From the NCBI RefSeq assembly GCF_054482595.1, contig NZ_CM137008.1: a stretch of 64,000 bases of DNA; one strand, 5' to 3'. Under the pieces are notes generated by a model. That model searched no databases, was not told where the DNA came from, and worked only from the letters and a program-made list of their open reading frames with translations. Positions within the stretch are counted from its first letter, which is position 1; each line of letters begins with the position of its first letter. Below are positions 26,053 to 26,195 of this stretch, piece by piece. The translations under genes were made by a program, and so were the position numbers.

Positions 26053-26158
26053 TACCTCTCTGGCGGTAGATCCCTGCCGCCAAAATTGCGCTAAATCAAT
26101 CTCCCTTAAAGTTGCATGAAAAATCCCTTTTATCCCCGCGTTAAGCGTCTTAACCTTA

Positions 26159-26181
26159 AAGATGTATATTAAATATAACTT
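26159..26181. promoter_or_regulatory. Candidate NsrR operator in the hcp promoter
   Basis: aagatgtatattaaatataactt: AT-rich imperfect palindrome resembling the NsrR consensus (AAGATGCATTT-N-AAATACATCTT) just upstream of the hcp start. Confidence 0.5.
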
Positions 26182-26195
26182 TAAAAGGTGTGATC

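Follow-up and report, generated by a model that had tools for sequence, protein, structure and literature searches.

NsrR operators and other regulators of hcp

The NsrR element upstream of hcp is already known. It was predicted in 2005, when a conserved palindrome 3' of an FNR box was recognized in an alignment of eight enterobacterial hcp upstream regions and assigned to NsrR (Rodionov et al. 2005, PMC1274295). In strain CFT073, hcp carries an NsrR ChIP-seq peak with 12-fold enrichment (Mehta et al. 2015, PMC5320621), and in a genome-wide scan of that strain the orthologous site of hcp comes second among the 11-1-11 matches, behind that of ytfE (PMC5320621). The same paper states that hcp was also bound by NsrR in a ChIP-chip study of K-12. 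In a Salmonella nsrR mutant, hcp mRNA rises 284-fold (PMC2884951), and a Phcp::lacZ fusion (pNF383) serves as a standard readout of the release from NsrR repression by cytoplasmic NO. Further regulators act on the same promoter: hcp-hcr is a directly FNR-activated operon with an FNR ChIP-seq peak (Myers et al. 2013, PMC3688515), and hcp is dependent on NarL/NarP (Rodionov 2005, PMC1274295).

The element studied here corresponds, in locus and in kind, to the NsrR site of the hcp-hcr promoter described in K-12 and CFT073 (Rodionov 2005; Filenko 2007; Partridge 2009; Mehta 2015, PMC5320621). We put the probability at roughly 95% that positions 26159-26181 of our sequence are this known operator of hcp-hcr, which is the textbook reading. 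K-12 MG1655 has the same FNR box, spacing and start codon, and its intergenic region differs from ours at one base. The difference lies at the start of the operator, which reads AACATG in both K-12 and CFT073 and AAGATG in our sequence, and the CFT073 hcp motif (AAGTTATATTTAATATACATGTT) is the reverse complement of our operator except for one base.

The operator of ytfE (AAGATGCATTTAAAATGCATCTT), a member of the same regulon, has the same 11-1-11 architecture, opens its left arm with the same AAGATG and likewise lies near the promoter. It is a perfect palindrome scoring 31.4 bits, whereas the hcp site scores 25.7 bits, has arms that are complementary at 8 of 11 positions, and carries T for C at position 7 and ATA for GCA in the right arm. 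The hmp operator (TTGATGTATCTCAAATGCATCTT) shares its motif and its NO signal with hcp but has a weaker left arm and, unlike hcp, does not belong to a class I FNR-activated promoter; FNR represses hmp.

In other bacteria, the same gene is regulated with the same nitrosative-stress logic by HcpR, which belongs to the Crp/Fnr family, and by NorR2. These proteins are activators that recognize unrelated DNA motifs, NorR2 working with sigma-54, and the Vibrio and Aeromonas hcp loci that we collected lack the NsrR palindrome. An hcp-linked regulatory RNA described in a 2026 preprint concerns HcpR of Bacteroides, not E. coli.

The hcp locus and its intergenic region

The window, by which we mean the whole analysed stretch of 64,000 nucleotides, derives from an E. 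coli chromosome. Positions 25900-26400 are matched in 5,424 of 5,426 complete E. coli genomes and are 100% identical in several of them, including XH990, Santai and TUM18780, where they are annotated as lysO and hcp. The upstream neighbour of hcp, lysO (ybjE), occupies 25153-26052 on the plus strand as an open reading frame with a Lys_export domain (Pfam, 5.9e-58), in agreement with the RefSeq annotation of the identical genomes. On the same strand follow hcp (hybrid cluster protein, 550 amino acids) at 26196-27848, with a Prismane domain (Pfam, 6.7e-153), and hcr (NADH oxidoreductase of Hcp, 322 amino acids) at 27860-28828, with Fer2, NAD_binding_1 and FAD_binding_6 domains; RefSeq annotates both genes in the same way. 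A Prismane-family gene is therefore followed, as the next ORF, by a gene for an FAD/NAD/2Fe-2S reductase, which is the arrangement of an hcp-hcr operon. The sequence-only reading had proposed a nitrosative-stress operon of this kind, and the Pfam and RefSeq assignments, together with the published repression of hcp by NsrR, agree with it.

The range flagged by that reading, 26053-26195, is the whole intergenic region of 143 bp between the lysO stop codon (26050-26052) and the hcp ATG (26196). Only 23 nucleotides of it are taken up by the palindrome, whose 3' end lies 14 nucleotides before the ATG. The start codon of hcp is the ATG at 26196, since both this ATG and the AGG of a Shine-Dalgarno sequence (AAGGTG, 26185-26190, plus strand, 5 nucleotides from the ATG) are invariant in an alignment of 14 genera; this conservation does not extend to an in-frame GTG at 26190. 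The repressor gene itself lies outside the window, and the source strain can be expected to carry it, given that 5,425 of 5,426 complete E. coli genomes contain nsrR.

Sequence and score of the operator

The palindrome, a 23-mer reading AAGATGTATATTAAATATAACTT (aagatgtatattaaatataactt), lies on the plus strand at 26159-26181 and forms an inverted repeat of exact 11-1-11 geometry, AAGATGTATAT-T-AAATATAACTT, with arms that pair at 8 of 11 positions. A search for repeats returned overlapping inverted repeats centred at 26170/26171, the two registers arising from TATA repeats within the palindrome. It departs from the consensus in the incomplete complementarity of its arms and in having ATA in the right arm where the consensus has GCA.

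Matrices for NsrR were derived from the 27 published 11-1-11 sites of CFT073 (PMC5320621, Table 4), from which we removed the hcp site and one duplicate. Three palindromic matrices resulted, built from 17 ChIP-positive or known-regulated sites, from all 25 remaining sites, and from four classic sites (ytfE, hmp, ygbA and yeaR). With these the operator scores 25.7, 26.5 and 24.1 bits, respectively, and it ranks first among the 63,978 positions of the window with each of them, the background being the 64-kb window and an analytic null model, not the whole genome. The corresponding P values under an independent-base background are 6.4e-10, 2.7e-10 and 5.1e-9, and about 0.001-0.03 matches of this strength would be expected by chance per 4.9-Mb genome. 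The operator is thus far above chance. Taken alone, its half-sites reach 12.87 and 12.57 bits, which puts them second and fourth among the 127,980 strand positions of the window. If placed beside the 17 training sites, the hcp operator would rank second, with ytfE alone higher, an order that mirrors the published genome-wide ranking. A palindrome resembling the NsrR consensus just upstream of hcp had been described from the letters alone, with a matrix scan suggested as the check; the palindrome is present, at 24.1-26.5 bits, and the scan places it first with P between 2.7e-10 and 5.1e-9.

Promoter layout and transcription start

Taking the mapped start site of Filenko, Browning and Cole (2005) as reference, Table 1 of Myers et al. 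2013 (PMC3688515) gives -72.5 as the centre of an FNR site of hcp (TTGATTTAGCGCAA). Its reverse complement, TTGCGCTAAATCAA, is found on the plus strand at 26086-26099, where it matches 8 of the 10 specified positions of TTGAT-N4-ATCAA and is near-invariant across Enterobacterales. The published distance and the centre of this box at 26092.5 together place +1 at 26165. A box at -72.5 occupies one of the positions allowed for a class I activator site (near -61.5, -72.5 and -82.5), and it is bound in vivo (PMC3688515), as in a class I FNR promoter.

With +1 at 26165, the operator runs from -6 to +17 and is centred at +6, and the ATG of hcp lies at +32, leaving a leader of 31 nucleotides. The likely -10 hexamer is TAACCT at 26151-26156 (plus strand, -14 to -9), as judged from its conservation and its fit to +1; across Enterobacteriaceae its first, second and sixth positions (T, A and T) are invariant, with TAACCT, TAATCT and TACCCT as observed variants. 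The operator begins 2 nucleotides 3' of this hexamer and extends across +1 into the first transcribed nucleotides. The sequence-only reading had expected the palindrome to overlap the -10 region or the transcription start and had pointed to mapped start sites as a check. The start deduced from the published FNR position is compatible with the operator, and the expected overlap holds for +1; the likely -10 hexamer is adjoined by the operator and not overlapped. Since the operator is located over the transcription start, repression probably proceeds by occlusion, as that reading had suggested, and its position makes this a sound expectation.

Scanning 25950-26300 revealed neither a consensus sigma-70 promoter nor a terminator, and the -35 region of the hcp promoter is poor. 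Both observations are as expected for a promoter that depends on an activator, and the scan is uninformative on the position of the start.

If transcription starts at 26165, two thirds of the palindrome are transcribed, and this part (+1 to +17) could in principle act as a 5'-UTR hairpin that controls the translation or stability of hcp mRNA. The left arm, however, is transcribed only in part. The predicted fold of 26165-26225 leaves the palindrome unpaired (-6.3 kcal/mol, z = 0.30 relative to shuffled sequences), and we reject a role at the RNA level as having almost no probability.

Upstream of the FNR box, a candidate NarL/NarP site of the 7-2-7 type, TACCTCTctGGCGGTA, occupies 26053-26068 on the plus strand with 2 mismatches to TACYYMT-NN-AKRRGTA. 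It is kept at a distance of 108.5-111.5 bp from the NsrR centre in approximately 30 loci of Enterobacteriaceae. Its centre is at -104.5, where Chismon et al. 2010 reportedly place the site. A G+C-rich inverted repeat (TGGCGGTAG/CTGCCGCCA, 26061-26082, plus strand), detected in the repeat search just 3' of the lysO stop codon, overlaps this candidate site. The repeat is conserved between genera: in 14 species, 88% of the cells in its alignment are paired, and one-sided changes occur (U-G to U-A or C-G); a covariation check across the same 14 species revealed no pair that had changed on both sides. No T-run follows the repeat, which is therefore not a canonical terminator.

One published observation is unexplained by a simple picture of FNR and sigma-70. 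Myers et al. 2013 (PMC3688515) found no sigma-70 ChIP peak at hcp and described the promoter as dependent on sigma-E, with reference to Rhodius 2006. Neither hcp nor ybjW, however, appears in the main text of the latter paper, and inspection of the hcp promoter region by eye revealed no GGAACTT-N16-TCNNA pattern of the sigma-E type.

Conservation across hcp loci

We collected 80 hcp loci in one scan of representative genomes, using the first 220 residues of Hcp as the query. In all 60 loci from Enterobacterales, the best match over the ~3-kb locus to the matrix that excludes hcp lies upstream of hcp, with scores of 20.9-29.9 bits. The centre of the site is 23-31 nucleotides before the ATG in 58 of these 60 loci (26 nucleotides in the window), the exceptions being Yersinia nurmii (-80) and Proteus penneri (-53). 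The distance between the centres of the FNR box and the NsrR site is also narrowly distributed, at 77.5 bp in 31 loci and 76.5 bp in 11; of the 62 promoters that have a site, 53 fall between 74.5 and 79.5 bp. The geometry of the promoter is therefore under constraint.

The alignment of 14 genera shows which parts of the palindrome are held. The positions defining the NsrR half-site (A-ATG-AT ... A-AACTT) are invariant, and the central A/T core is variable. This distribution bears on whether the palindrome could have arisen by chance in an A+T-rich promoter, for instance from overlapping -10-like hexamers such as TATATT or TAAATA, with no dedicated regulator. Its core is indeed nearly pure A/T, TATATT at 26165-26170 shares five of six bases with TATAAT, and TATA repeats by themselves generate the two palindrome registers. 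However, the P value of the operator remains 1.6e-8 under a null model with 70% A+T, and the positions that are invariant across the 14 genera include the G and C of the half-sites (ATG...CTT), the opposite of what the variable A/T core displays. Together with the NsrR ChIP-seq peak (PMC5320621) and the genetic derepression (PMC2884951), these data effectively refute a chance origin, whose probability we regard as negligible.

Among the 20 loci from outside Enterobacterales, a single site above 13.2 bits was detected, in one Shewanella. Nothing above this score was found with the hcp-excluded matrix in the hcp loci of 5 Pasteurellaceae, 9 Aeromonas, 1 Vibrio and the other 3 of 4 Shewanella. 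Pasteurellaceae are without NsrR, and Vibrionales use NorR2 (Rodionov et al. 2005, PMC1274295), and the absence of NsrR sites from our Pasteurellaceae and Vibrio loci matches this distribution.

Three Shewanella hcp loci (L074, L080 and L081) contain a palindrome, such as AACATGCATAAATAAAGCATGAA, approximately 32 nucleotides before the ATG, whose score with the 11-1-11 matrix of E. coli does not exceed 13.2 bits. These palindromes suggest a variant spacing or half-site for NsrR of Shewanella.

The taxonomic distribution is also informative about proteins other than NsrR. The palindrome might mainly be the site of another protein, such as the Rrf2 paralogue IscR, OxyR, Fis or IHF, with binding by NsrR being incidental. 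Nucleoid proteins often bind A+T-rich sites near transcription starts, and there are reports that OxyR regulates hcp. Yet the palindrome follows the taxonomic range of NsrR, being absent from Pasteurellaceae, where NsrR is lacking, and it specifically matches an 11-1-11 matrix derived from other targets of this regulator, in scans made with NsrR matrices. Moreover, the overlap of the hcp FNR site with nucleoid proteins is given as 'None' (Myers 2013, PMC3688515). We therefore consider a principal role for another protein very improbable, and favour the operator of NsrR; nothing that we found contradicts the latter.

A rare operator allele and an additional half-site

The G at 26161 (plus strand, operator position 3, -4) is the sole intergenic difference from K-12 MG1655, and most E. 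coli have C at this position. A 60-mer with the allele of the window (AAGATG) occurs exactly in 18 complete E. coli genomes, and the equivalent 60-mer with the K-12 allele (AACATG) occurs exactly in 5,134 of 5,335. By our count of the sites in Table 4 of PMC5320621, the other NsrR half-sites used in the matrix have G at position 3 in 18 cases and C in 8 cases, out of 34. The G raises the matrix score by ~1.1 bits, and because this rise is so modest, any effect is probably small; we would expect the G26161 allele to behave like the common C allele. The binding of NsrR to the exact allele in the window, like the occlusion of the promoter, is predicted from orthology and position.

A weak additional NsrR-like half-site, AAGTTGCATGA, is located on the plus strand at 26109-26119 (-56 to -46), in the stretch that separates the FNR box from the core promoter; it scores 9.6 bits and ranks 39th among the 127,980 strand positions. 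It has the same orientation as the left arm of the operator and starts exactly 50 bp upstream of it. The 23-mer that it begins (AAGTTGCATGAAAAATCCCTTTT, 26109-26131) is the second-best match to the full matrix in the window, at 18 bits, although only its left half looks good. A PatSer listing for CFT073 includes the equivalent of this half-site as AAGTTGCATTA (PMC5320621). In other genera its conservation is uneven: Escherichia, Kluyvera and Cedecea retain AAGTTGCA, and Citrobacter has AAGTTGTA, but neither is kept in Enterobacter, Klebsiella or Kosakonia. The promoter might thus receive more input from NsrR than one operator would provide, if AAGTTGCATGA were to recruit a second dimer and hinder activation by FNR. 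G26161, too, might tighten repression in comparison with the common C allele. We regard this elaboration as rather unlikely.

Other NsrR-like matches and side features of the window

The intergenic region between lrp and trxB contains, at 7672-7694, the sequence AACATCGATTTTTAGTACAACAT, which on the opposite strand is identical to the NsrR ChIP-seq site published for trxB (PMC5320621, Table 4). The window therefore includes a second known NsrR target.

In the spacer between aqpZ and lysO, an NsrR-like match of 15-16 bits is present at 25058-25080, approximately 85 nucleotides upstream of the lysO start. Among all half-sites of the window, its right half, AAGTTGCAATT, takes third place. As far as the accessible text of the CFT073 study goes, lysO is not among the ChIP-seq targets of NsrR (PMC5320621), and the match may be due to chance.

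Another NsrR-like 23-mer, AAGTTGCCCTGAAAATGAAATTT, occurs at 57682-57704 with 13-17 bits, at -74 to -52 relative to the sRNA gene rybB (Rfam RybB, 57756-57834). NsrR represses rybB, and no robust binding of NsrR to the rybB promoter was seen in vitro (2025, PMC12249550).

Two further features were noted elsewhere in the window. Between infA and clpA (13988-14268), two minus-strand CRISPR-DR4 repeats (14180-14207 and 14241-14268) come after a tRNA at 13988-14072 that is annotated as tRNA-Ser in XH990; the repeats look like a tiny orphan CRISPR array. Also on the minus strand, positions 41685-41765 match the Rfam family naRNA4 (nucleoid-associated noncoding RNA 4, CssrE) with 72 bits.

Regulation of hcp-hcr by NsrR

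The mechanism with the best support is the following. NsrR, an Rrf2-family dimer with an iron-sulfur cluster, binds the 11-1-11 repeat at -6 to +17 of a weak promoter, one that needs FNR at -72.5 (26086-26099) and receives further stimulation from NarL/NarP, probably at 26053-26068. Under anaerobic conditions with nitrate or nitrite, FNR recruits RNA polymerase with the help of NarL/NarP, and NsrR bound on the transcription start, just 3' of the -10 hexamer, should keep the polymerase from forming a productive complex. Damage to the cluster by NO causes the repressor to leave, and hcp-hcr is then transcribed under anaerobic stress from NO derived from nitrite or nitrate.

NsrR occupancy and NsrR-dependent repression at hcp have already been published, and the operator carries little weight as a discovery. 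The reading from raw sequence alone proved accurate, and the region can now be annotated confidently, with an FNR box, a -10 hexamer, +1 and the NsrR operator, and with NarL/NarP probably binding upstream of these. The one new detail of this analysis is the rare G26161 allele, a small natural variant that may be of use when the basal expression of hcp, or the behaviour of NO reporters, is compared between strains.
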